DNA from: Candidatus Zixiibacteriota bacterium
Lineage (GTDB): Bacteria > Zixibacteria > MSB-5A5 > GN15 > FEB-12
Length of the DNA stretch: 33,795 nucleotides
Reading direction: 5' to 3'
NCBI GenBank assembly: GCA_041742355.1
Contig: JBGSIV010000203.1
Location: forward strand, 1-33,795
The notes beneath the pieces were generated by a model that worked only from the letters and a program-made list of their open reading frames with translations, was not told the DNA's origin and did no database searches. This document shows, in pieces, positions 3,821 through 33,795 of the stretch. Each line of letters begins with the position of its first letter. Position 1 is the first letter of the stretch. Made by a program: the position numbers and the translations under genes.

Positions 3821-4900
3821 GTGAAAAAGTGGTCTGTCCTGCTGTTCCCGGCGATGATCCTCCTCTCCGGCTGCGGCACCACGCACTACTTCGTCCCAGC
3901 CCAGCCGCTCGGCGAGGAAGAGTCGGCGGTGTATGTCACATGGCACTATGATCTGCGAGGGCTCAACGCCCCCAGCCCTATCCCGGATTTCCACTTCTAC
4001 TACGGCGCTGGCGAAAACGCCAATATCGGCCTGGGTCTGGCTTTTCCCGTTTTCATATCGCATCTCAGCGCGGCAAGGTATTGGTCGTCCGACGAGGATT
4101 TCCGCTATGCTTTCCTGCACCTCGGCCAGATCGCCGGGACAAACATGAATCCGTTTGTCGAGGGAGGCTTCGGATACTCAGTTCCAGATGGATCGACTGT
4201 GCAGCAGTTCGAATTGGGCCTCGCCTACGGCAACGGCACTGGTTCGCCGTTGGCCGCGTGGGCTATGGATACGAAGTACCGGGGAGGCAACCGCTTCATG
4301 CCGCTGGCTCGGTACCAGATAGCCGGTGTGGACGTCGGAGCGTCGCTTCAGTACTACCACGGGATGACGGCCGCGCATCTGCGTAACCTCGAGAGTGTCG
4401 CCGACGGGAACTGGACCGGACCGGATAAACTGCTTCGCGCCGAAGATATCGATTCGGTGGCCTTCTACCCCGCAGAGGTATCCACCTCGACCAATGATCA
4501 CCTGGTCATCTTCATGAAATCAGGCTGGCAATATGATCTGTTCGCGAAGGGCCCCGAGGCGATCGCGGTTGGGCAGGGGGCGCGGACGAGCGATGCTGTA
4601 TGGCTGCGGACTGGCATCATTCCAACCCTGGATGGGCAACTTCCCCACTTTCCGGCCGATTCTCTCCCCGCGATGTGGTTCCGCGCCTTCACCCAGACCG
4701 GTCGCGGGGCCGAGTTTATCACTCCCGACGAGCCATTCCTCGGGCGAGTCGATTCCATCGCCGCTGCTCTCCAGCGGGGCGAGGATGTCCGGCTCCGCTC
4801 CTACTCCGACATTCAGGCCGAAATTCTCCGCCAGTGGCAGCAGGCCAAACGCGGCTTCTGGAACGACCTCTCGGTCGGCGCGGCGATCATTTCCCGCTGA
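3821..4900 (+). CDS. hypothetical lipoprotein, beta-strand rich
   Basis: GTG start with GGAGAGG RBS; basic N-terminus, hydrophobic stretch and lipobox LSGC (Cys18). Confidence 0.75.
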   Translation: MKKWSVLLFPAMILLSGCGTTHYFVPAQPLGEEESAVYVTWHYDLRGLNAPSPIPDFHFYYGAGENANIGLGLAFPVFISHLSAARYWSSDEDFRYAFLHLGQIAGTNMNPFVEGGFGYSVPDGSTVQQFELGLAYGNGTGSPLAAWAMDTKYRGGNRFMPLARYQIAGVDVGASLQYYHGMTAAHLRNLESVADGNWTGPDKLLRAEDIDSVAFYPAEVSTSTNDHLVIFMKSGWQYDLFAKGPEAIAVGQGARTSDAVWLRTGIIPTLDGQLPHFPADSLPAMWFRAFTQTGRGAEFITPDEPFLGRVDSIAAALQRGEDVRLRSYSDIQAEILRQWQQAKRGFWNDLSVGAAIISR

Positions 4901-20678: not shown

Positions 20679-22847
20679 ATGTTTGGTGTCAAAGATCTGG
20701 CCGTCGAACTGCTCACCGATTCCCCGGTACTGGTCGCGCTCTCCCTGATCGTGCTGGTGGCCCTGTCGGTCTACATCTACCGTCGAACCAATCCCCCCCT
20801 GCCGCGGTGGCTTCGCCTGACCCTCGGCGGCCTGCGCATCACCGCTGTCATCCTGCTCTTCCTGGCCCTCTTCGAACCGGTCGTCAGCTACACCCACGAG
20901 TACGTCCGGCCGCGCCGCATCGCGGTCGTCCTCGATGAATCCCTGTCCATGAACAAGGTCGAGAACGAACGCCCCCGGCGCTCCCGCGCCGACTCGCTCC
21001 TCTCCGGCGCGACCTATGAGAACCTGACCCGAACCACCGAGGTCAGCACCTACTTCTTCGGCGGCAGCCTCGACCGCTCCCCCGGCAAAATAGACAGCAC
21101 CCGCACCGCCCTCGGCGACGCTCTGTTCGAGCTCGACAAGCTGCAGATGGCCGAACCCCACGACTACTGGCTCGTCGTCACCGACGGCAACTCCAACTCC
21201 GGCCGCAAACCCCTCGATGTCGCTCCGTCCCTCTCCACCCCGGTCATCAGCATCGATATCACCGGCGGACAGGGCAGTTTCGATATCGGCGTCGGCGAGG
21301 TCGAATTCAACCCCGTCATGTTCGTCGGCCGCCCGGCCGAAATCAGGGTCCGCCTCAACTGGCGCAATGCCGAGGGCAAAACGATCGATGTCCGCCTGAT
21401 CGACTCCGTGCGCACCGTCGATGACGAGCAGCTTGCGGTCACGCAGGAGGGAGGGATCGGCGAAGTCACGCTCAGGTATGTGCCCGATGTCCCCGGCCAG
21501 AAGCTCCTGAGCATCTCGGTCCCCCCGCAGGAAAACGAGGAATCCATCGGCAACAACAGCCGCACGATCTCGGTCAAAGTTCTCAAGAGCCGCATGATGG
21601 TGCTGGTGGTATCCGATGCCCCCGACTACGAGGTCGGCTTCCTCAAGCGCCTCCTGAGCGGCTCCGACCGCTACGAGGTCGACTTGCTGGCCACCGGCGG
21701 CAAAGCCGGCAATCTCGGCGGTCGCTTCCCCTCGGCGCAAACCGAACTCAACCGCTACGACCTCATCATCCTCCACGACCCCGATCCCGCCGACTACAAC
21801 GGCCGCCAGGAGATCCTCCAGTCGTACCTGGCCGAACGGGGGGGAGCGCTCTGGGTCATGATGGGTCCGCAGTTCGCCGCCCGGGGGCCTGTGCCCTGGT
21901 TCAACGACCTGCTGCCCTTCTGCCAGACCGGCGCCATGCCGGTGCAGTATGTCGACCAGCGCGCCGACCCGATGGAAAGCCACCTGTTCCACCCGGCGAT
22001 CCGCCTGGCCGATGATCAGTCGACCATCCGCGAAACCTGGGCCGCCCTGCCCCCCTTCGAAGTGATCGTGCTGTGCGACTCGGTCGCCGCCGATGGCGTC
22101 GTGCTCGCCGAATCCTCCCGCCGCAATCCCGAAGGCGCGCCGCCGGCGCTCGGTTACCGCCGCCACGGCCCCGGCAAAGTGTTCGCCTCGGCCGTCCTAC
22201 CGTTCTGGCCGTGGGGCTTCGTCAATCTCGGCTTCGGGGAAGATGATGCCGGCTACCGCAGGTTCATCGAGGGAACGGTCGGATGGCTTACCGTGAAAGA
22301 TGACTTCGAACCGATCCGGGTCAAACCCGAGAAGGAAGTCTTCACCCGCGGCGAACCGGTTGCTTTCCACGGCTTCGCCTTCGATCTCGGCTACCGTCCG
22401 CTGCCCGGTGTCACCGGGGCGGTCGAGTTGACCGGCGGCCCGGAAAACGAAGAATTCCAGCGTGATCTGGTCGGTGTCGGCGAAGGCAACTTCCGGGCCG
22501 CGTTTGACAATCTCGCTCCCGGACGCTATACCTACGCCGCCCGAATGGAGAAGGAGAACCAGGTCCTCCGCGTCGACAGCGGCGCGATCCTCATCGAATC
22601 CTTCTCACTCGAGGAGTTCGACCAGAGCGGCGACCCGGCCACCCTCGCGGCCCTCTCGCAGGCCACGGGCGGGACCTACTACACCTACGACCAGTTTGAC
22701 CGGGTCCTCAACGACCTCAGCCTCGAGGAAGTCACCCTCTCGAACCGGCGCGAGTTCTCTTTCTGGAATCAGCTCTGGATGCTGATAGCGTTGATCGGGG
22801 CGTTGTCGCTGGAGTGGTTCCTGCGGAAGGCGAATCAGCTAGTCTGA
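20679..22847 (+). CDS. membrane-anchored vWA-domain protein with Ig-like and GATase-like middle domains
   Basis: Two N-terminal TM helices; MIDAS DESLS...T.LG...VTDG; ENEESIGNNS Ig-like end; YDLIIL...GG.L segment; C-terminal TM ending LSLEWFLRK. Confidence 0.8.
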   Translation: MFGVKDLAVELLTDSPVLVALSLIVLVALSVYIYRRTNPPLPRWLRLTLGGLRITAVILLFLALFEPVVSYTHEYVRPRRIAVVLDESLSMNKVENERPRRSRADSLLSGATYENLTRTTEVSTYFFGGSLDRSPGKIDSTRTALGDALFELDKLQMAEPHDYWLVVTDGNSNSGRKPLDVAPSLSTPVISIDITGGQGSFDIGVGEVEFNPVMFVGRPAEIRVRLNWRNAEGKTIDVRLIDSVRTVDDEQLAVTQEGGIGEVTLRYVPDVPGQKLLSISVPPQENEESIGNNSRTISVKVLKSRMMVLVVSDAPDYEVGFLKRLLSGSDRYEVDLLATGGKAGNLGGRFPSAQTELNRYDLIILHDPDPADYNGRQEILQSYLAERGGALWVMMGPQFAARGPVPWFNDLLPFCQTGAMPVQYVDQRADPMESHLFHPAIRLADDQSTIRETWAALPPFEVIVLCDSVAADGVVLAESSRRNPEGAPPALGYRRHGPGKVFASAVLPFWPWGFVNLGFGEDDAGYRRFIEGTVGWLTVKDDFEPIRVKPEKEVFTRGEPVAFHGFAFDLGYRPLPGVTGAVELTGGPENEEFQRDLVGVGEGNFRAAFDNLAPGRYTYAARMEKENQVLRVDSGAILIESFSLEEFDQSGDPATLAALSQATGGTYYTYDQFDRVLNDLSLEEVTLSNRREFSFWNQLWMLIALIGALSLEWFLRKANQLV

Positions 22848-24521: not shown

Positions 24522-25244
24522 CTACCAGAGGTCGGCCGGCAGCATAAGATCGAGTTTCACCGTGCTTCCGGGGATCACCGTCACCGGATAGGTCAACGTG
24601 TCCGACTCCGGCAGGTAAACAACCAGCAGGTGATGATTCCCCATCGGCACGCCGCTGAAACTGAAACTCCCGTCCGGCCGGGGTGCGGCTGAGGCTGTCG
24701 TCACCCCCCCTGCACCATTCGGATATCGAAGCGCCACCACCACCGAATCGCGGAAGACTGTTCCCGGCGGACGGCGCTCCGCATCGGTGACATACCCGCT
24801 CACCGCATTGCCCAGCAGCTCCGACGCCGCCGTCGTAACCACCCGCTCAATGGCGCTCCCCGAACCGGTCGACCGGATCGTCGTCCCGGTGTAGGCGTAC
24901 GCCGCTCCCCAGGCATCGGTCAGAGATCCGTTCGGATCGATATACGGTCCGTCCCACGTCGCTAATCCCGGGTTGGCGGTGAGCGCGCTCAATGTCGGCG
25001 GCAACGCGCCGACATCCCCCACATACCCGAAGTCACTCCGCGCACCGTGCGTGTTCACCTCCGGATTGCCGCCGATCGCGAACGCCAGGTGCTCCATCTC
25101 GCGCCGCGTCTGCTCCACCCGGGCGTCATCGATACTCCCGAGCATCTCCCGCAGGGCGACCGTGCCGATGATCCCGATAATCACGATCACGATCACCAGT
25201 TCGACCAGGGTGAACCCCTGCTGGGATGTTACCCTGCTTCTCAT
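24522..25244 (-). CDS. type IV prepilin / GspG-like pseudopilin with C-terminal beta-sandwich domain; paralog 4 (short, 240 aa)
   Basis: QQG|FTLVELVIVIVIIGII class III signal; DFGYVGDVGALP...NPG..TW.GPY...DAWG..Y. ATGA overlap with paralog 3. Confidence 0.9.
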   Translation of the reverse strand: MRSRVTSQQGFTLVELVIVIVIIGIIGTVALREMLGSIDDARVEQTRREMEHLAFAIGGNPEVNTHGARSDFGYVGDVGALPPTLSALTANPGLATWDGPYIDPNGSLTDAWGAAYAYTGTTIRSTGSGSAIERVVTTAASELLGNAVSGYVTDAERRPPGTVFRDSVVVALRYPNGAGGVTTASAAPRPDGSFSFSGVPMGNHHLLVVYLPESDTLTYPVTVIPGSTVKLDLMLPADLW

Positions 25245-26383
25245 GGCCGGCAGTTGTCCGCGGTAAAGGTGACCGAGGAGCCGTCGCTGAACTCAAGCGT
25301 GAATTCGGCTCCGCTCATATCAACCGGCGGCCCGCCGCCGTTCGAATTCGCATGGAACTCCTCGATTCTCACTTGCACTGCTTCTCCGGCGCCGAGCGTC
25401 TGGGCCGACGTAAACGTGGCGGTCGACCCGCTTGTCAACGCCGGATTCCCGCCGCGCACCTGCACCCCATCCCAGTAGACGTTCTGGAAGTAGGCGGTCG
25501 GTCCAGTCCACGTCACCTTGACCGAGCTGATACCGGCCGGGGAGCTCTCCTGGTTGGTTATCCAGACCACGAGCTTGTAACAGTTCGCTGTCGTCAGGGT
25601 ATCGGAACCGCTCATGACACCCAGTCCTGTAGCCGAGCCGCTTCCTCCGCTGCTCCAATAGTTTTCCGCGAGGAAGTACTCGGTGTAAACCATCGCTCCC
25701 GGCGGCACCGTCACGAACCGGTGCACGGTGTCGCTTTCGGGGACATAGACAATCTGCAAATCGTGGTTGCCGATCGGGATGGAATCGAACGTGAAGTACC
25801 CGCCGCCGTCAGTCGGGCCTATCCGCGTCGTGGTTCCGCCGCCTCCGTTCGGATAATTCAACGCGACTTCGATCGAGTCGCTGTAGACAGCTCCCGGCGG
25901 CGTCCCGTCTGCGTCCAGCACAACCCCCGCCACTCTGTTGCGCAGCAATTCCGACTCGGCCCCGGCCAGCTTCTTCACGATCGGTCCGTCCGGACTGCTC
26001 GAAATCAGATTCACCCCGTCACGAGTGTACGGTTTTCCCCACGGATCGGTCTTGAACCCGCCTGCTTCCTGCACCAGTTCGTTCACCACGTACGGCCCCC
26101 GCCACGTTCCCAGCCCGGGGTTGGTCCGCAGGGCGTCGAAATCAGGCGGCAGCGCTCCGACATCCCCGACATACCCGAAATCCACCCGCACGCCCACATT
26201 CCTGATCTCAGGATTCCCCACTATCCCCTGAGAGAGCGCTTCCAGCTCGCGTTTGGCTTCTTCGGTCCGCGCCCCCGCGCCGATAATGGCCGCGGATCGG
26301 AGCGCCACCGTCGCCAGAATCGCCACGATCACGATCACGAGGATCACCTCGACCAGCGTAAAACCGCTTCGCGCACGAATCAT
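25241..26383 (-). CDS. type IV prepilin / GspG-like pseudopilin; paralog 3 (long, 380 aa, extra C-terminal domain)
   Basis: True start MIRARSG|FTLVEVIL at 26383 (TGATG overlap), not 26650. Same core motifs as the other paralogs, including DPWG.PY. Confidence 0.9.
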   Translation of the reverse strand: MIRARSGFTLVEVILVIVIVAILATVALRSAAIIGAGARTEEAKRELEALSQGIVGNPEIRNVGVRVDFGYVGDVGALPPDFDALRTNPGLGTWRGPYVVNELVQEAGGFKTDPWGKPYTRDGVNLISSSPDGPIVKKLAGAESELLRNRVAGVVLDADGTPPGAVYSDSIEVALNYPNGGGGTTTRIGPTDGGGYFTFDSIPIGNHDLQIVYVPESDTVHRFVTVPPGAMVYTEYFLAENYWSSGGSGSATGLGVMSGSDTLTTANCYKLVVWITNQESSPAGISSVKVTWTGPTAYFQNVYWDGVQVRGGNPALTSGSTATFTSAQTLGAGEAVQVRIEEFHANSNGGGPPVDMSGAEFTLEFSDGSSVTFTADNCRP

Positions 26384-27546
26384 CAGCAGGCCCCCGTATT
26401 GAAACTGATGGTCGATCCGTCGGAAAGCTGCACCGTGAGGCTGACATTCGCCATACTCACCCTCGGCCCGCCGCCGCCCGACGATTGACGGAACTTCTCC
26501 ACAACTACGGTCGCCGTTGCGCCGTGCGCCACCGTCTTCGCGCTGCTGAACGTCGCGACCGATCCCGAACCGGGCAATCCGCTGTTCTTCTTGACCACCT
26601 GCTGCCCGCCGAACGTGACCTCTTCGTAGTACGCCGTCGGACTCGCCCACGTCAGCGTGACCGACGAAACCGTTATCGGCGCGCCCGAATTGTTGGCCAC
26701 CTGGAACGTGATCTTGTCGCAGGTGCCGCCCGACACTCTGACCGAACCGCTTACCAGCGTCAGCCCGGGCGTGTACCCCGGCGCGCCCCCGCCGCCAAAG
26801 TACTCCTCCGCGAACCGATAGATATCGATCGGGTCATTCCGGTGGCGGGGAAGAATCGTCACATAGCGGAACAGCGTGTCCACTTCGGGGAGGTAGATCA
26901 CTCGCACCGGGTGCATCCCCGCCGGCACCCCCGCAATGCTGAACGAACCGTCGGCATCGGGTATCCGGCTGCTCGTGCTGAGCCCGCCTGCCCCGTTGGG
27001 AACCGTAATTACCACCGCCACCGAATCGCGGTACACCGCCCCCGGAACCGAATCGGCCGCATCGCGGACCACGCCCCGGTAGGTGTTGTTCAGGTAGTCA
27101 TCGGGACTGTCGGCAAACTGCTTGGTCAGGGTCGTGCCGCCGCCGGTGCTCGTGATCGTCACGCCCCCGGCGTAGCCGTACGCCTCCCCCCACTCATCGG
27201 CCCGATAGCCGGTCGTATCCTGCGCAAAACCGGGGGAGAGGTAGGGCCCGTCCCACGTCGCCCAGCCGCCCGGATTCGTCCGCAACGCCTGCAGATTGGG
27301 CGGCAGCGCCCCGATATCTCCCACGTATCCGAAATCGCTCCGCGTTCCGCCCGAGGCCAGCGACGGATTCCCGACCATCGCCTGCGCCAGCGCTTCCATC
27401 TCCCGCTCGGTCGCCACCCGGCGCATATCCTCCATGCTCGAGGTCATCGACTGCATCGCCACCGCCAACAAAACACCCACCACGACAATCATCACCAGCA
27501 GTTCAATGAGGCTCAGCCCCCTGCTGTCGCTGAAGTGCGCTCTCAT
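26383..27546 (-). CDS. type IV prepilin / GspG-like pseudopilin; paralog 2 (long, 387 aa, extra C-terminal domain)
   Basis: True start MRAHFSDSRG|LSLIELL at 27546, 1 nt after the upstream stop. Same core motifs. Confidence 0.9.
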   Translation of the reverse strand: MRAHFSDSRGLSLIELLVMIVVVGVLLAVAMQSMTSSMEDMRRVATEREMEALAQAMVGNPSLASGGTRSDFGYVGDIGALPPNLQALRTNPGGWATWDGPYLSPGFAQDTTGYRADEWGEAYGYAGGVTITSTGGGTTLTKQFADSPDDYLNNTYRGVVRDAADSVPGAVYRDSVAVVITVPNGAGGLSTSSRIPDADGSFSIAGVPAGMHPVRVIYLPEVDTLFRYVTILPRHRNDPIDIYRFAEEYFGGGGAPGYTPGLTLVSGSVRVSGGTCDKITFQVANNSGAPITVSSVTLTWASPTAYYEEVTFGGQQVVKKNSGLPGSGSVATFSSAKTVAHGATATVVVEKFRQSSGGGGPRVSMANVSLTVQLSDGSTISFNTGAC

Positions 27547-27547
27547 G

Positions 27548-28297
27548 CTACCACACCTCCGCCGGATACTGCAGGTCGAGGTGGACATGTTGCCCGGGAT
27601 CGACCGTCACCTGACGGCGCAGCGTGTCGGCCATGGGTCCATACACCAGCGCCAGCAGGTGCGATCCGATCGGGATCGAATCAAACTCCGCCGTCCCGTT
27701 CGGCCGCGGGTTCGCCTGCATCGTCGTTGTGCTCCCCAGGCCATTGGGAATCGTGAGGAGCAGCTCGACCGAATCGGCGTAAACCGCTCCGGGAGGCATG
27801 GCGGCCAGGTCGGTCACCACCACCGTCACAGTATTGCGCAGCAAAGCATCGGCATCATTGGCGATTCGCCGGGTCAGCGACGAACCGCCTCCCGACGACG
27901 AAATATCCACGCCGGCCAGCGTATACGGCTTACCCCAGGCATCAAGGGAATAGCTGATCTCCGCGCCGCCGCCGGCTGCATAAAACTCGTCCCGCACATA
28001 CGGACCCCGCCATGTCCCCAGCCCCGGATTGGTCACCAGCGCCACAAGATCGGCCGGCAGCGCTCCCACATCCCCGACATATCCGTAATCCGTCCGCCGC
28101 CCCCCCGATGTCAACTCGGGATTCCCGGCGACTGCCCACGCCAGGCGATCCAGTTCCGCACGGGTCTCCTCCACCCGCACGGCGTCGTTGGCCCCGCGCA
28201 GGGAGCGCATGGTCACCGCCGTGAGCACACCGAGGATTAAGATGACCACGACCATCTCGATCAACGAGTAGCCGCGCTGTTGACGACACGGATTCAT
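27548..28297 (-). CDS. type IV prepilin / GspG-like pseudopilin; paralog 1 (short, 249 aa)
   Basis: QRG|YSLIEMVVVILILGVL; DYGYVGDVGALP...NPGLGTWRGPY...DAWGKPY. Confidence 0.9.
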   Translation of the reverse strand: MNPCRQQRGYSLIEMVVVILILGVLTAVTMRSLRGANDAVRVEETRAELDRLAWAVAGNPELTSGGRRTDYGYVGDVGALPADLVALVTNPGLGTWRGPYVRDEFYAAGGGAEISYSLDAWGKPYTLAGVDISSSGGGSSLTRRIANDADALLRNTVTVVVTDLAAMPPGAVYADSVELLLTIPNGLGSTTTMQANPRPNGTAEFDSIPIGSHLLALVYGPMADTLRRQVTVDPGQHVHLDLQYPAEVW

Positions 28298-28333: not shown

Positions 28334-28360
28334 TTATCGGCAGGGCAGGGCCCCGGTTTA
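28334..28360 (-). promoter_or_regulatory. sigma28 (FliA/SigD/WhiG-type) promoter of the four-pilin operon
   Basis: Minus strand reads TAAA (28360-28357), exactly 15 nt, GCCGATAA (28341-28334): a full consensus match, 36 nt upstream of the first ATG. Confidence 0.8.
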
Positions 28361-28410: not shown

Positions 28411-28437
28411 AAAAAGCCGCGGACATTCGCCCGCGGC
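28411..28437 (-). terminator. intrinsic terminator after fdx
   Basis: Minus strand reads GCCGCGG-N8-CCGCGGC-TTTTT. Confidence 0.7.
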
Positions 28438-28468: not shown

Positions 28469-28789
28469 TTAGAACGTGTCGTCCTTGTCCCAGAGCGGCT
28501 CCTTCTCCGGAATCGTAACGACCAGGTCCTTCGTCACCCGGCACTGGCAGGCCAGGCGCGAGGTGGTGGTGAGATTCTCCGCCTCGTCGAGCATATCCTC
28601 TTCGTCTTCGCTCTTCTCGTTCAGCGTCTCGAACCCCTCGTTGATGATCACGTGGCAGGTCGAGCAGGCGCAGTTGCCTCCGCAGTTGTGATCGATACGG
28701 ATATCATTATCCAGGGCGGCATCGAGAATAGCCGAGCCCTCCGGGACATCGACCGTTATATCAGCAGGGAGAAACCGAATCTTCGGCAT
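28469..28789 (-). CDS. fdx: ISC-type [2Fe-2S] ferredoxin (adrenodoxin family)
   Basis: HNCGGNCACSTCHV...EEDMLD.A......SRLACQ. GAGG RBS before ATG 28789. Confidence 0.93.
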   Translation of the reverse strand: MPKIRFLPADITVDVPEGSAILDAALDNDIRIDHNCGGNCACSTCHVIINEGFETLNEKSEDEEDMLDEAENLTTTSRLACQCRVTKDLVVTIPEKEPLWDKDDTF

Positions 28790-28838
28790 CGCTCGTTCCT
28801 CATCCGTTGCATGTTCCACGCGCGGGTTACACGCCATA

Positions 28839-29129
28839 TTATGCATTTGGTTCCTCCGAGGCAATCGTCTTTTCCGATTCATGGGCCGCCCGGTACACCA
28901 CGATGTTGTCGTGCTCGTTGCCGTAGCGAATCGACTTCGCCACGCCGACCAGCCGCGCCGTCAACTGCATGTACGCCCACGGCGGAATAGGCAGGCCACA
29001 CCCCCGAATGAGCACGTGTTTTCCGCTCAGCGGGGCAAAATCGTACCCCGCCACGGCGGCCAGGAAACCATCCTCGGTGAACCGGCCGTTGTCGGTGAAA
29101 TCTTTGGGATCCAATGGGATAAGCGCCAT
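28839..29129 (-). CDS. DUF2480-like protein (short form, 96 aa)
   Basis: EDGF......D......K.V.I.GC...IP.WAYM.L...L...A..I.YG resembles DUF2480 as I recall it. TGATG coupling to iscA. Confidence 0.7.
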   Translation of the reverse strand: MALIPLDPKDFTDNGRFTEDGFLAAVAGYDFAPLSGKHVLIRGCGLPIPPWAYMQLTARLVGVAKSIRYGNEHDNIVVYRAAHESEKTIASEEPNA

Positions 29130-29488
29130 CAGACAGTAAAGGACGAGCCGCACCCGCAGGAGCGCTTGGCCTTGGGATTAGAGAAACTGAAACCGCCCCC
29201 CATCAGGCCCGACTTGAAATCGAGGGTCGTGCCCGTCAGGTACATCAGGGCCTGCATGTCCACCACCACCTTCAGTCCGAAAAACTCGAACTCCTTGTCC
29301 ACGTCGGCCTTCTCGGTGTCAAACGCCATGCTGTACGACATGCCGGAGCACCCCCCGGCCAGGACGCCGAGGCGAAGGTAGGTCGGATTGTCCTTTTCCA
29401 GTAACTGCAGGCGCCGGATCTCCAAAACAGCGGCCTCGGTGACCGTAATCGGCGGCTGCTGCGTGGTCGGGTGTGTCTGGTCCACCAT
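29129..29488 (-). CDS. iscA: A-type Fe-S cluster carrier (IscA/ErpA/HesB family)
   Basis: ITVTEAA, LRLGVLAGGCSGMSY, GTTLDF and F.NP.A..SCGCGSSF motifs. GGAGG RBS. Confidence 0.93.
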   Translation of the reverse strand: MVDQTHPTTQQPPITVTEAAVLEIRRLQLLEKDNPTYLRLGVLAGGCSGMSYSMAFDTEKADVDKEFEFFGLKVVVDMQALMYLTGTTLDFKSGLMGGGFSFSNPKAKRSCGCGSSFTV

Positions 29489-29813
29489 ACGGTTTATCCT
29501 CCGAAGTTGAAATCATCGCTATAGTTAGTCCCCATACCCCATGTTGGGTACGTCATTGGACAACCCCCGCCGATAACCGTTTGTTCCCGGCCGGGAAATT
29601 TTGGCCGCCCGGTTCTCCTCAGCCGCGAATGGCGCGTCCGGCCCGCCGATCATCGGGCGGCAGGGTCCTCCCGCACGCGCCGAAGGTCCCTCGGGCGGTC
29701 CTTTCGGTCGATCAGGGTATGTTCGGTCCAGATTCCCGCGACATTTTCTGTCGCAGATCCTGCGGAAGGAGCGCCCGAAAGAGGAAAAACTTATACATTT
29801 TTCAATTTTGTTG

Positions 29814-29846
29814 TGGACTACATGTATCCCTATTCGTATAATAGGG
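29814..29846 (+). promoter_or_regulatory. sigma70 promoter of the Rrf2 gene with overlapping palindromic operator
   Basis: TGGACT-N17-TATAAT. The inverted repeat CCCTATT-N5-AATAGGG (29828-29846) covers the -10. Confidence 0.65.
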
Positions 29847-29940
29847 CGTCGCGCAAGCGGAAAACGAAGGTAGATTCGTTAATCTATGCCCATGCGCACC
29901 GGTCGCCCGGTGTAACGCCAACATAAGGAAACACGATCGT

Positions 29941-30375
29941 ATGAGACTGTCACGCAAATCCGACTACGCGCTCCGCGCGGTCCGTCACATCGCCAACCTC
30001 CCCACTGGCAAGCTCGGCTCCATCAACTCGATCTCCGAGGCCGAGAGCGTCCCGCGGGAATTCCTCGCCAAGATCCTCAAGGATCTCACCCGCAGCGGTA
30101 TCCTGGTCTCCTACCAGGGCGTAACCGGCGGCTACCGCCTCGCGCACAACCCCAAGGACGTGTCGTTCCTCGACGTTATCGAGGCTATCGACGGCCCGCT
30201 GCACCTGAACCTCTGCACCGAAACCAAGACCTGCACCTGCGACCAGTTCAACGCCTGCCAGCTGCGCGGCTTCTGGGATCAGCAGGAAAAAATGTTCAAG
30301 AAGGCGCTGGAGAAGCAGAACTTCGCCAAGTACCGCCGCAAAGTCCGCCCCACCACGAAGTCGGCGCGCGTCTAA
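29941..30375 (+). CDS. Rrf2 family transcriptional regulator (IscR/NsrR-like, Cys-containing)
   Basis: [20 protein letters not shown]...[18 protein letters not shown] and [15 protein letters not shown]. Divergent from iscA. Confidence 0.93.
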
Positions 30376-31677: not shown

Positions 31678-33795
31678 ATGAAGAACCGATTCAAGCCAGC
31701 CGGAAAGATGCCGCCGGAATTCGAGCCGGCCGCCGAGAAGATTCGCGCCCTCCTCGAGAAGAATGAGTTCCCGCCGGCCTTCCGGTTGCTCCGCCAGATC
31801 GAAAAGCACCATTCCGGGAACAAGGCCTTCTGGCTCCTCCTCGCGCAGTACTACGCCCAGCAGAAAGAGCACGCCGATGCCGCCGAGGCCTTCGAACGCG
31901 CCCTCGCGCTCGACCCGGCCGACAGCGCGATCTACCACAGCTACGCCAACCTCTACTATGCGGCCGATCGGATCGCGGAAGCCAAGGCCGTCCTCCGGCG
32001 CGGAATCGAGCACGCCGGCGACACCCGCGCCTGCTATATGCTCATGGAGAGCCTGCTCGTGGCCGCGAAAGACGTCGACGGCTACCGGCAGCTCGTCGCC
32101 GAAATCCGCGGCCGCCAGGACAGCCCGGACTGGAACCTGCTGTGGTGCGCCGGCGCCGCCTCCCGCACCCAGGTTCCGGTCACCAACATTGATTTCTATC
32201 GACGTTGCCTGGCCGCCGGCTGGGAGGAAACGTGGTTGTTCTACGGGCTGGCTGACCTGCTCTTCCACATGGGACATCTGGAAGCAGCCGAGGATTTCCT
32301 GCGGATTGCCATCCGGAAAGACGGCGCTGAGGTTCGACACTACGAGCTGCTCGTCCAGATCGCGTCAACCGCCCGGCGCCTGTCGAACGAAACGCTCGTG
32401 GCCGCCGCCGGCTGGAAGATCGCCGTCCTCAACGAAGATATCCGCAACCAGATGAACGTCCTCTGGTGGGGCGGCGACACCGAATCCCTGCAGCAGATGC
32501 TCGATGTCTGGGTGAACTGGGTGGGCAAGATCGATACGCTCCTGCTCTCCTTCCGCCACCTGGCGGAGTTCTACCGCCGGGAACAACTCGAGCACGCCGA
32601 ACGGGGGAGACTGCAGTGCGACCCCCTCAAGGCCCTGGAGGAGTGCATCGCGCAACTGGACGAGCGCAAGGACCAACGGTACGCCAGTCTCTACCGCGGC
32701 TGGCTCCACTATTTCCGCAAGGAATACGCCGAAGCCGAAGAGGTGCTCACCGCCGTCCACAAGCGCGTCCGCGTGTCCGACAGTCATCGCGCCGATCTGG
32801 ACGGAGTGCTCGAGGGACTGGCCCGCAGACGCGAACACGAGAAGGGATCCGCACAGCCCGCCCGACCCAAGTCTAAACCGACCGGCGCTCCGGCCTCGAA
32901 AGAACTGCTTGAAATGGGCACGGTACTCGGCGAGGGGAGCCCGTCGCCCGACCGCAAGCCCTCGGTCGGCCTCGACCGCACCGTCGAACACATGCTGCAC
33001 GTCATGACCGGCGACGCCTGCCGCAGCCTGCTCCTCACCGGGCCGTCGGGCATCGGCAAGACCGCCGCCATTCACACGCTCGCCTGGAAGATCCGGCTCG
33101 GCCAGTGCCCCGCCGAACTCGCCGGCTTCCGCGTGTTCCAGACCTCCACGACGCGCCTCCTGGCCGGCGCCAAGTACATCGGAACCTGGCAGGAACGGAT
33201 CGAAAAGGTCTGCACCGAGGCCTCGCGTGCCGAGCGGTTCGTCATCTGCTTCGAAGATATCGAGAACATCGTCGGCGCCGGACGCACTGACGGCGACTCC
33301 AGCTCGTTTGTCAACTACCTGCTCCCGCGTATGCAGAGCGGCGAAATCATCCTCATCGGCGAGCTCGATGCCGGACGGGTCCAGATGCTCTATTCCCGCG
33401 AACCCCGCCTCGAAACAGCCCTGACCGAAATCCGCATTGAAGAGCCGACCGGCGACAAGCTCACCGCCATCCTCCGCGAGAGCGCCTCGGGCGGCCTGCT
33501 CGGCCCGGTCACCGTGACCGAAGCCGCCTTGCAGGAAGCCGTCGCCCTCGCCGAGGTCTTTCTGCCCTACCGGGCTTTCCCCGGCAAAGCGCTCGATTTG
33601 CTCCGACGCGCCGGCGAGCTCTTCCGCGGCGGTGAAACCGGTGCGACCACCCGGATCGACCAGGCCGAGGTCACCCTCGCCTTCTGCGACCGCAGCGGCG
33701 TGCCCGACTTCATCGTCGACTCGCGCCAGTCGCTCGACACCGCCCGCATGCAGTCGTTCTTCGCCGACCGCGTTCTTGGCCAGCAGCGCGCCCTC
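31678..33795 (+). CDS. TPR-repeat protein fused to a ClpA/ClpB-type AAA+ ATPase (3'-partial)
   Basis: Frame +1 is open from ATG 31678 (GAGG RBS) to the window end; I translated it by hand. TPRs include AFWLLLAQYYAQQKEHADAAEAFERALALDP. Clp NBD1 hallmarks: LLTGPSGIGKT (Walker A at 33040-33063), LLAGAKYIG, IVGAG, EEP, R.FPGKALDLL and SGVP. RVLGQ begins NBD2. Confidence 0.9.
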   Translation, partial: MKNRFKPAGKMPPEFEPAAEKIRALLEKNEFPPAFRLLRQIEKHHSGNKAFWLLLAQYYAQQKEHADAAEAFERALALDPADSAIYHSYANLYYAADRIAEAKAVLRRGIEHAGDTRACYMLMESLLVAAKDVDGYRQLVAEIRGRQDSPDWNLLWCAGAASRTQVPVTNIDFYRRCLAAGWEETWLFYGLADLLFHMGHLEAAEDFLRIAIRKDGAEVRHYELLVQIASTARRLSNETLVAAAGWKIAVLNEDIRNQMNVLWWGGDTESLQQMLDVWVNWVGKIDTLLLSFRHLAEFYRREQLEHAERGRLQCDPLKALEECIAQLDERKDQRYASLYRGWLHYFRKEYAEAEEVLTAVHKRVRVSDSHRADLDGVLEGLARRREHEKGSAQPARPKSKPTGAPASKELLEMGTVLGEGSPSPDRKPSVGLDRTVEHMLHVMTGDACRSLLLTGPSGIGKTAAIHTLAWKIRLGQCPAELAGFRVFQTSTTRLLAGAKYIGTWQERIEKVCTEASRAERFVICFEDIENIVGAGRTDGDSSSFVNYLLPRMQSGEIILIGELDAGRVQMLYSREPRLETALTEIRIEEPTGDKLTAILRESASGGLLGPVTVTEAALQEAVALAEVFLPYRAFPGKALDLLRRAGELFRGGETGATTRIDQAEVTLAFCDRSGVPDFIVDSRQSLDTARMQSFFADRVLGQQRAL

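Follow-up and report, generated by a model that had tools for sequence, protein, structure and literature searches.

The window analysed here, a stretch of 33,795 nucleotides (nt) from Candidatus Zixiibacteriota bacterium that makes up the whole of contig C203, carries four adjacent pilin genes, A to D, on its minus strand (24522-28297). We found that these pilins are very probably served by a type IV filament machine encoded elsewhere in the genome, in a compact operon on contig C77. By analogy with described tips, we favour with moderate confidence the reading that A-D would form a one-of-each heteromeric adhesive tip, which would prime the filament made of pil1 by the C77 machine and display adhesive domains. 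As the original prediction stated, the four genes are tightly coupled and encode 249, 387, 380 and 240 amino acids (aa), with a 1-nt gap between A and B (TAG-c-ATG) and overlaps at B/C (TGATG) and C/D (ATGA). Pilin A (27548-28297; cleavage between G and Y, mature start 28270) consists of a GspG-like head and a transthyretin-like sandwich, while B (26383-27546; cleavage between G and L, mature start 27516) has the shared core and a third sandwich like that of C. Pilin C (25241-26383; cleavage between G and F, mature start 26362) has a head (residues 27-131), a sandwich (136-238), a Gly/Ser linker and a third, weakly archaellin/FlaF-like sandwich (25244-25642, minus strand), and D (24522-25244; cleavage between G and F, mature start 25214) has a head and a sandwich and ends in PADLW. 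The class III signals with Glu5 claimed for all four were present; the Pfam N_methyl family matches all of them, over its cut-off for A, C and D and under it for B (19 vs 21.2 bits). The core and sandwich motifs quoted earlier proved to be invariant or near-invariant columns of the four-way alignment, in which identity to A is 44% for B, 47% for C and 48% for D.

No assembly gene was found in the 33.8 kb of the window, and machinery was present elsewhere in the genome, both as predicted. The host genome, which is 93.8% complete, holds three extension ATPases, three platforms, two Pfam secretin matches and one prepilin peptidase. On C77, the ATPase, platform, pil1 (132 aa mature), pil2 (139 aa), a PilM-PilN fusion, O-like and P-like genes and a 431-aa secretin follow one another in the operon. 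Apart from A-D themselves, only pil2 is matched strongly by the A-D profile in this genome (E=3.5e-29), and a head motif is common to both. When 20 kb were fetched around 20 hand-picked matches from those listed for families f4-f20, a long pilin stood right after pil2 and before the PilMN-like gene in 19 of the 20 loci; two f17 loci had an extra short copy beside the in-operon long pilin, and one of the 20 (L043) was a free four-gene cluster. Where the cluster is free the slot is empty: pil2 abuts PilMN in the host genome and in 6/6 other free-cluster genomes fetched, and no machine gene lay beside the cluster in 20 loci of families f1 and f2 or in any of the 80 best loci. The C77 machinery and the in-operon relatives led us to reject A-D as an orphan system. 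The earlier claim of a stand-alone system without described analogue was not supported: A-D are relocated, expanded accessory pilins of an identifiable operon.

The long-pilin family was found in 222 of the 285 genomes of the phylum (at most six candidates were scored per genome), with all best matches at E<=4e-49, and this spread indicates that it is not a chance find. pil1 was found in 212 of them. In the lists, which were compared by hand, 210 genomes had both, 61 neither, 12 only the family and 2 only pil1; furthermore, one genome with only the family (G196) has the operon with a divergent pil1, and one with neither (G176, 72% complete) has the ATPase of the operon. It counts against the weight of this co-occurrence that much of it is trivial where the gene sits in the operon and that kin are not independent. 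In Zixibacteria families without long pilins, 14 loci (L210-L223) carried extra secretin, ATPase and platform genes on branches of their own, and 13 of the 14 showed no pilin motif in the fetched stretch.

A, B, C and D are four old separate clades. In a quick, unrooted IQ-TREE of 109 cores, in which five rows were moved to B or C after the tree was seen, A, B, C, D and the in-operon copies each formed one side of a branch, with Shimodaira-Hasegawa-like approximate likelihood ratio test (SH-aLRT) supports of 100, 100, 96, 100 and 95, and each of the roles A-D took one change. Copies group by position and not by genome, and recent within-genome tandem duplication or gene conversion was therefore rejected. 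In the 80 best free-cluster loci, to which our counts of order and tails refer, the order A-B-C-D held in 80/80 as far as the contigs reach; 55 loci contain a single complete copy of each gene; B is present three times in one locus, and D is split in another. The median core ratios of nonsynonymous to synonymous substitution rates (dN/dS), taken from pairs chosen for dS 0.05-2, were 0.22 for A (40 pairs), 0.19 for B (90), 0.18 for C (116) and 0.21 for D (103), with a maximum of 0.37, and with such low values we rejected relaxed selection on A-D. The fixed order and these medians indicate a non-random arrangement under purifying selection. The original prediction had named three findings that would speak against it, namely a family that matches a characterised pilin cluster, a genome without machinery or peptidase, and random order with relaxed selection; none of the three was observed. 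In genus g24 (L062-L065, L074, L115) the tandem extra copies are B and clusters reach six genes, and one g24 genome has the cluster in two places beside masked stretches.

The short-long-long-short architecture proposed earlier held as the commonest pattern but not as a general one. Tails were absent from A in 48/61 and present in 13/61; those of B were of the window type in 14/72, of other types in 55/72 and lacking in 3/72, and the corresponding figures for C were 53/76, 15/76 and 8/76. D was untailed in 74/74 and measured 232-235 aa in 72 of them. B was the most variable of the four, with lengths of 238-909 aa and at least 11 tail types, and identical tail types were found on A, B and C. 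On FastTree trees the tail state changed at least 27 times in B (12 states) and 14 times in C (4 states). Pfam recognised LamG, H-type lectin or DUF2341 in 6 of 12 tail representatives, nothing in 5 and a weak lipocalin in 1. The commonest B tail (41 copies, ~155 aa with Cys pairs; L080:4527-5027) and an acidic repeat tail (L095:8488-9864) are without a Pfam family.

The AlphaFold2 model of mature C, built on a 47-row alignment (predicted local distance difference test score (pLDDT) 91.8, predicted template modelling score 0.62), begins with an unbroken helix (3-48) and continues with a small head and a sandwich, after which a low-confidence linker (239-243) leads to a further sandwich. A three-domain fold is thus predicted for C, with separately folded domains after the pilin module, which supports the displayed beta-sandwich domains of the original prediction. 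Its head (model residues 27-131) matched EpsG with Z 9.4 and a root-mean-square deviation (rmsd) of 1.8 A over 83 aligned residues, in agreement with the GspG-type head proposed earlier, and PulG with Z 7.5. The middle domain matched transthyretin-like and CnaB-like sandwiches (Z 9-11). The third domain, folded alone (pLDDT 95), matched FlaF/FlaG with Z 8.1, tied with ScsB at Z 7.9; 11 of 50 rows of its structure matches were archaeal filament proteins, and its match to Pfam Arch_flagellin (E=1.3e-4) was under the cut-off. The archaellin/FlaF-like identity is thus a weak lead from the model, no assignment. Foldseek with the full C model returned only multi-sandwich proteins at high rmsd. In sequence searches of the PDB, the full-length profile reached N-terminal helices only, and the third domain alone found no match. 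TIGR01710 (GspG) scored A-D at 22.8-36.3 bits, below its cut-off of 88.85, and Pfam T2SSG scored D at 24.4 bits, above its cut-off of 21. The C-terminal acidic loop of GspG (G.DG..GGEG..ADI), which has a calcium role, is present in two reference GspGs and absent from the family consensus. Pro22 is invariant in pil1 and not among the commonest residues in A-D. All parsed copies had Glu5 (59 of A, 70 of B, 76 of C and 73 of D), the parser accepting only E or D at that position, and residue 1 of mature A was Tyr in 58 of 59 parsed A genes.

How might such pilins be used by the C77 machine? PilD (contig C231) would cleave the A-D prepilins; the ATPase and platform would then extrude A-D first, followed by pil2 and by pil1 as the major pilin, and the filament would leave through the short secretin. 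The transthyretin-like sandwich may serve as a rigid spacer, and the tails on B and C may bind surfaces or glycans; B would be the chief variable socket, and D would play a constant, structural part. Gene order, coupled junctions, the bulk of the proteins and analogy make a tip position and heteromeric assembly likely. Assembly of type IV filaments is generally taken to begin at a tip of divergent minor pilins (HIJK) or at a CofB-like trimer. In the available text of three sources, modular pilins with bulky domains sit at filament tips (bioRxiv 10.1101/2021.01.27.428410; PMC10191384; PMC12075869). Two observations weigh against the adhesive tip: Glu5 and a major-pseudopilin-like head in all four would also suit incorporation in the shaft, and lectin annotation is absent from the B and C tails of this genome, so that adhesion is drawn from relatives. 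A-D could be low-abundance decorations of the same pil1 filament, standing singly along the shaft or acting as alternative caps. Glu5 in every parsed copy, the lack of a K-like pilin in operon or cluster, the head fold of a major pseudopilin and the extra B copies tolerated in g24 would all fit this arrangement. However, the strict one-each order, the coupled junctions and the class-specific residues suggest a stoichiometry, tails reach ~660 aa, and steric clashes arose when a modular pilin, S. sanguinis PilB, was modelled in a shaft (available text of bioRxiv 10.1101/2021.01.27.428410). We consider shaft decoration unlikely. The tip reading would give a widespread uncultured phylum a likely surface-adhesion device, in which B and C are natural display sockets.

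As to the kind of machine, sequence comparisons suggest that the C77 motor and platform are related to those of the mannose-sensitive haemagglutinin (MSHA) pilus. Aeromonas MshE, MshG and MshK had their best genome matches on C77 (MshE 377 vs 353 and 318 bits), and the C77 ATPase carries the MshEN cyclic di-GMP motif (60.7 bits, over the cut-off of 38). In the platform tree and the joined ATPase/platform tree (25 rows, without six close C77-type rows), the C77 type grouped with Aeromonas MSH at SH-aLRT 99, the C77 platform being the sister of Aeromonas MshG (SH-aLRT 99; one reference); both were quick trees. The best PDB match of the pil1 profile was MshA (9lab), over residues 1-71 only; in a separate comparison the head alone gave E=0.03, and the Atlas hinted at GspG-like clusters (score 0.90). 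The C77 secretin reached 127 bits against the cut-off of 250 of TIGR02519, used as the MshL model, and 222 and 195 bits against the PilQ and GspD models, both under cut-off. A search for PilY1 gave no signal in any control genome and was uninformative. Several points tell against an MSHA relationship: the link hangs on one long-branched reference and quick trees; in the ATPase tree (45 rows) the C77 type is one clade (SH-aLRT 91) outside PilB without a resolved sister; and Aeromonas MshL is slightly closer to the secretin of contig C152 (91 vs 82 bits). Furthermore, 12 other Msh queries gave matches in the genome for MshK and, weakly, for MshN alone, with MshD, MshO, MshP and MshQ not found; MshM gave no tblastn match at E<=0.01 with one query in this 93.8% complete genome, and none was seen in the operon maps. 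In the MSH model as given in the available text of Denise et al. (2019; PMC6668835), mshA, E, G, L and M are mandatory. Since mshM was not found, we prefer the label MSHA-related to a classification of the machine as MSH.

The system looks chimeric, because the C77 gene order E-F-pilins-L-M-C-D equals that of the Comamonas type II secretion system (T2SS) locus and because Comamonas GspG, but no MSH pilin, is matched by the heads of the core and of pil2 (E 2.9e-7 and 4.3e-6, respectively). The PilM-PilN fusion is like GspL. These features, together with the GspG fold and the lack of PilT in the C77 operon, would suit a T2SS-like C77 machine in which A-D take the place of GspH-K and use their tails to recognise secreted substrates or to keep them in the periplasm. 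However, the platform and concatenated trees exclude C77 from the T2SS clade, the GspG acidic loop is missing, and the secretin scores higher with PilQ than with GspD. PilT is found in the operon of distant relatives, and lectin-type tails fit targets outside the cell better. Such a secretion role for A-D seems to us quite improbable.

After leaving the operon, A-D might instead have been captured by the type IVa pilus (T4aP) of the same genome, which has PilB, PilT and PilC on C286 and PilMNOQ on C134. PilB and PilT of C286 are both over their cut-offs, the ATPase scoring 694 bits against 675.65 for TIGR02538 (PilB), whereas the C77 ATPase lies below at 548. The cluster is physically apart from C77, T4aP genes are typically scattered according to the available part of the Pelicic review, and a sigma-28-type motif precedes pilM and pilT. 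Against capture, candidate minor pilins of the T4aP itself lie on C134, C142 and C300 (labels from sequence pattern), 101 of 107 genomes of the host family retain pil1 in an operon that has lost the long pilin, and PilB is over cut-off in 47 of the 61 genomes with neither family nor pil1. We judge it very improbable. The T2SS-like machine of C152 was rejected as the partner by its distribution: with one query, so that absence means not found with this query, its secretin occurred in 12 of 107 other genomes of the host family, against 107/107 for the cluster, and in 0/3 congeners. This second machine is patchy in the phylum (28/285 genomes), and a probable G/I/J/K-like pilin set lies on C298.

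A motif TAAA-N15-GCCGATAA stands 37 nt upstream of A (28334-28360, minus strand). It exactly matches the sigma-28 (FliA)-type consensus, with 0.04 expected per window, and a scan for sigma-70 found no site. CCGATA occurred within 250 nt upstream of A in 58/59 loci (shuffled mean 3.7, maximum 8), upstream of C in 7/74 and upstream of the C77-type ATPase in 15/24. The genome has FliA/WhiG, over cut-off, and flagellin-domain genes. It detracts from any special tie of A-D to the C77 machine that the motif is unspecific, with 49 genes near-matched genome-wide, including pilM (C134:8775) and pilT (C286:5889). The FliA/WhiG gene itself (C157:6193-7086) and several likely secreted proteins are also among these 49 genes, which suggests that in this lineage a FliA regulon includes pili. 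A terminator-like hairpin (28416-28437, minus strand) separates the IscA/ferredoxin genes upstream from the promoter of the pilins; it is weak, since 3 such sites were found vs 2.4 expected.

The 80 best loci were labelled Zixibacteria (42), Ignavibacteriales or Ignavibacteriaceae (21), 'bacterium' (12) and other (5), and we read the Ignavibacteriales labels as loose because many such loci share the flanking genes of the window. The core profile matched 152 representatives at E<=1e-30 and 556 at 1e-10, and the full-length profile 680 proteins among 8000 scored. The commonest taxa of look-alike Atlas clusters (scores 0.88-0.91, taken as leads) were Zixibacteria, WOR-3 and Fidelibacterota. In 74 metagenome loci a distant group was seen in which a pair of ~170-aa pilins stands ahead of one short and one long modular pilin, followed by PilM, O, P and secretin; PilT came right after the secretin in 7 of the 74, which fits a retractile pilus. 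The direction from operon to free cluster is what we infer from the wider spread of the operon state, the tree being unrooted. A single in-operon long pilin, perhaps a CofB-like homo-oligomeric tip, may have been duplicated, moved out and specialised to A-D in part of one order. It is possible, though we hold this only tentatively, that Zixibacteria and neighbouring uncultured lineages have a distinct bacterial filament subtype, in which an MSHA-related motor has lost HIJK and forms its tip from tandem GspG-fold pilins, each of them a socket for swappable modules such as an archaellin-like sandwich, LamG or H-lectin. If true, this subtype would preserve the transition from a homo-oligomeric tip encoded by one gene to an ordered heteromer encoded by four. 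Living genomes in which this modular pilin family has one, two or four genes for the same machine offer a testable series for the evolution of heteromeric tips by duplication, and MSHA-related machines would be far more widely spread than the small number of phyla in the 2019 survey.

The remaining genes of the window are housekeeping in the Pfam scan (lipid A, GMP synthase, Fe-S, PdxS). An Rrf2 regulator divergent from IscA, DUF2480 and a 2Fe-2S ferredoxin (28469-30375) are the usual upstream neighbours in family f1. A functional link of the cluster to the neighbouring Fe-S and saccharopine dehydrogenase genes was dismissed, because other neighbours occur elsewhere, and we read them as local synteny only. 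A 722-aa membrane-anchored protein without Pfam match (20679-22847, plus strand) lies near the cluster in many f1 genomes. The plus strand also encodes a 359-aa lipoprotein-like open reading frame without Pfam match (3821-4900), adjoining a transglutaminase-like gene, and, truncated where the contig ends, a tetratricopeptide-repeat protein with a fused Clp-like AAA module (31678-33795).

In the literature on Zixibacteria and type IV pili or MSHA, mostly non-subscription papers, no description of this family was found, nor did we find described the combination of GspG-fold modular paralogues, four fixed roles and an MSHA-related motor. However, pilins with grafted PF13620 or PF13385 are already a described class, so the absence of any analogue claimed in the original prediction does not stand. 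The available part of Raynaud et al. (bioRxiv 10.1101/2021.01.27.428410) describes modular pilins as widespread, with 264 architectures including these two. The class III signal and N-methylation motif of such grafted pilins were found in A-D, with B slightly under the Pfam cut-off. Like the modular pilins S. sanguinis PilB and PilC and CofB, A-D have extra domains on short linkers, among them PF13620-like and LamG modules, and tip display and adhesion were proposed there as here. In contrast, A-D are four paralogues in fixed positions with a GspG-type head, a diderm host and an MSH-related machine, and they have an obligatory second sandwich and an optional third module exchanged among A, B and C. 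The C77 machine resembles MSHA of Vibrio and Aeromonas (locus L160) in the grouping of its platform, alone and joined with the ATPase, its MshEN motif, its P-like gene matching MshK and a locus without peptidase or PilT. It differs in gene order, in its fused PilM and PilN, in accessory pilins with GspG-type heads, and in that MshM, MshH, MshF, MshD, MshO, MshP and MshQ were not found by tblastn. With GspG, EpsG and PulG, A-D share the head fold and the W.GPY and D.WG motifs; unlike GspG, they are far under TIGR01710, lack the acidic loop and Pro22, measure 230-380 aa when mature and come in four copies. HIJK tips, their replacement by PilABC in S. sanguinis and the CofB trimer are described in the available part of PMC10191384. 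PilHIJK and GspHIJK are, like A-D, four co-transcribed accessory pilins in fixed order, and the relatives' copies of A-D occupy the slot between major pilin and L/M; unlike HIJK, A-D are 44-48% identical paralogues, none without Glu5 and none K-like. Remote, variable tip clusters are known from Myxococcus Kil (Tad), where, in the portion available of PMC12075869, minor-pilin clusters with variable distal domains lie away from the machine as A-D do; those are Tad-type pilins in four alternative clusters of three non-identical types, whereas here one cluster holds four paralogues.

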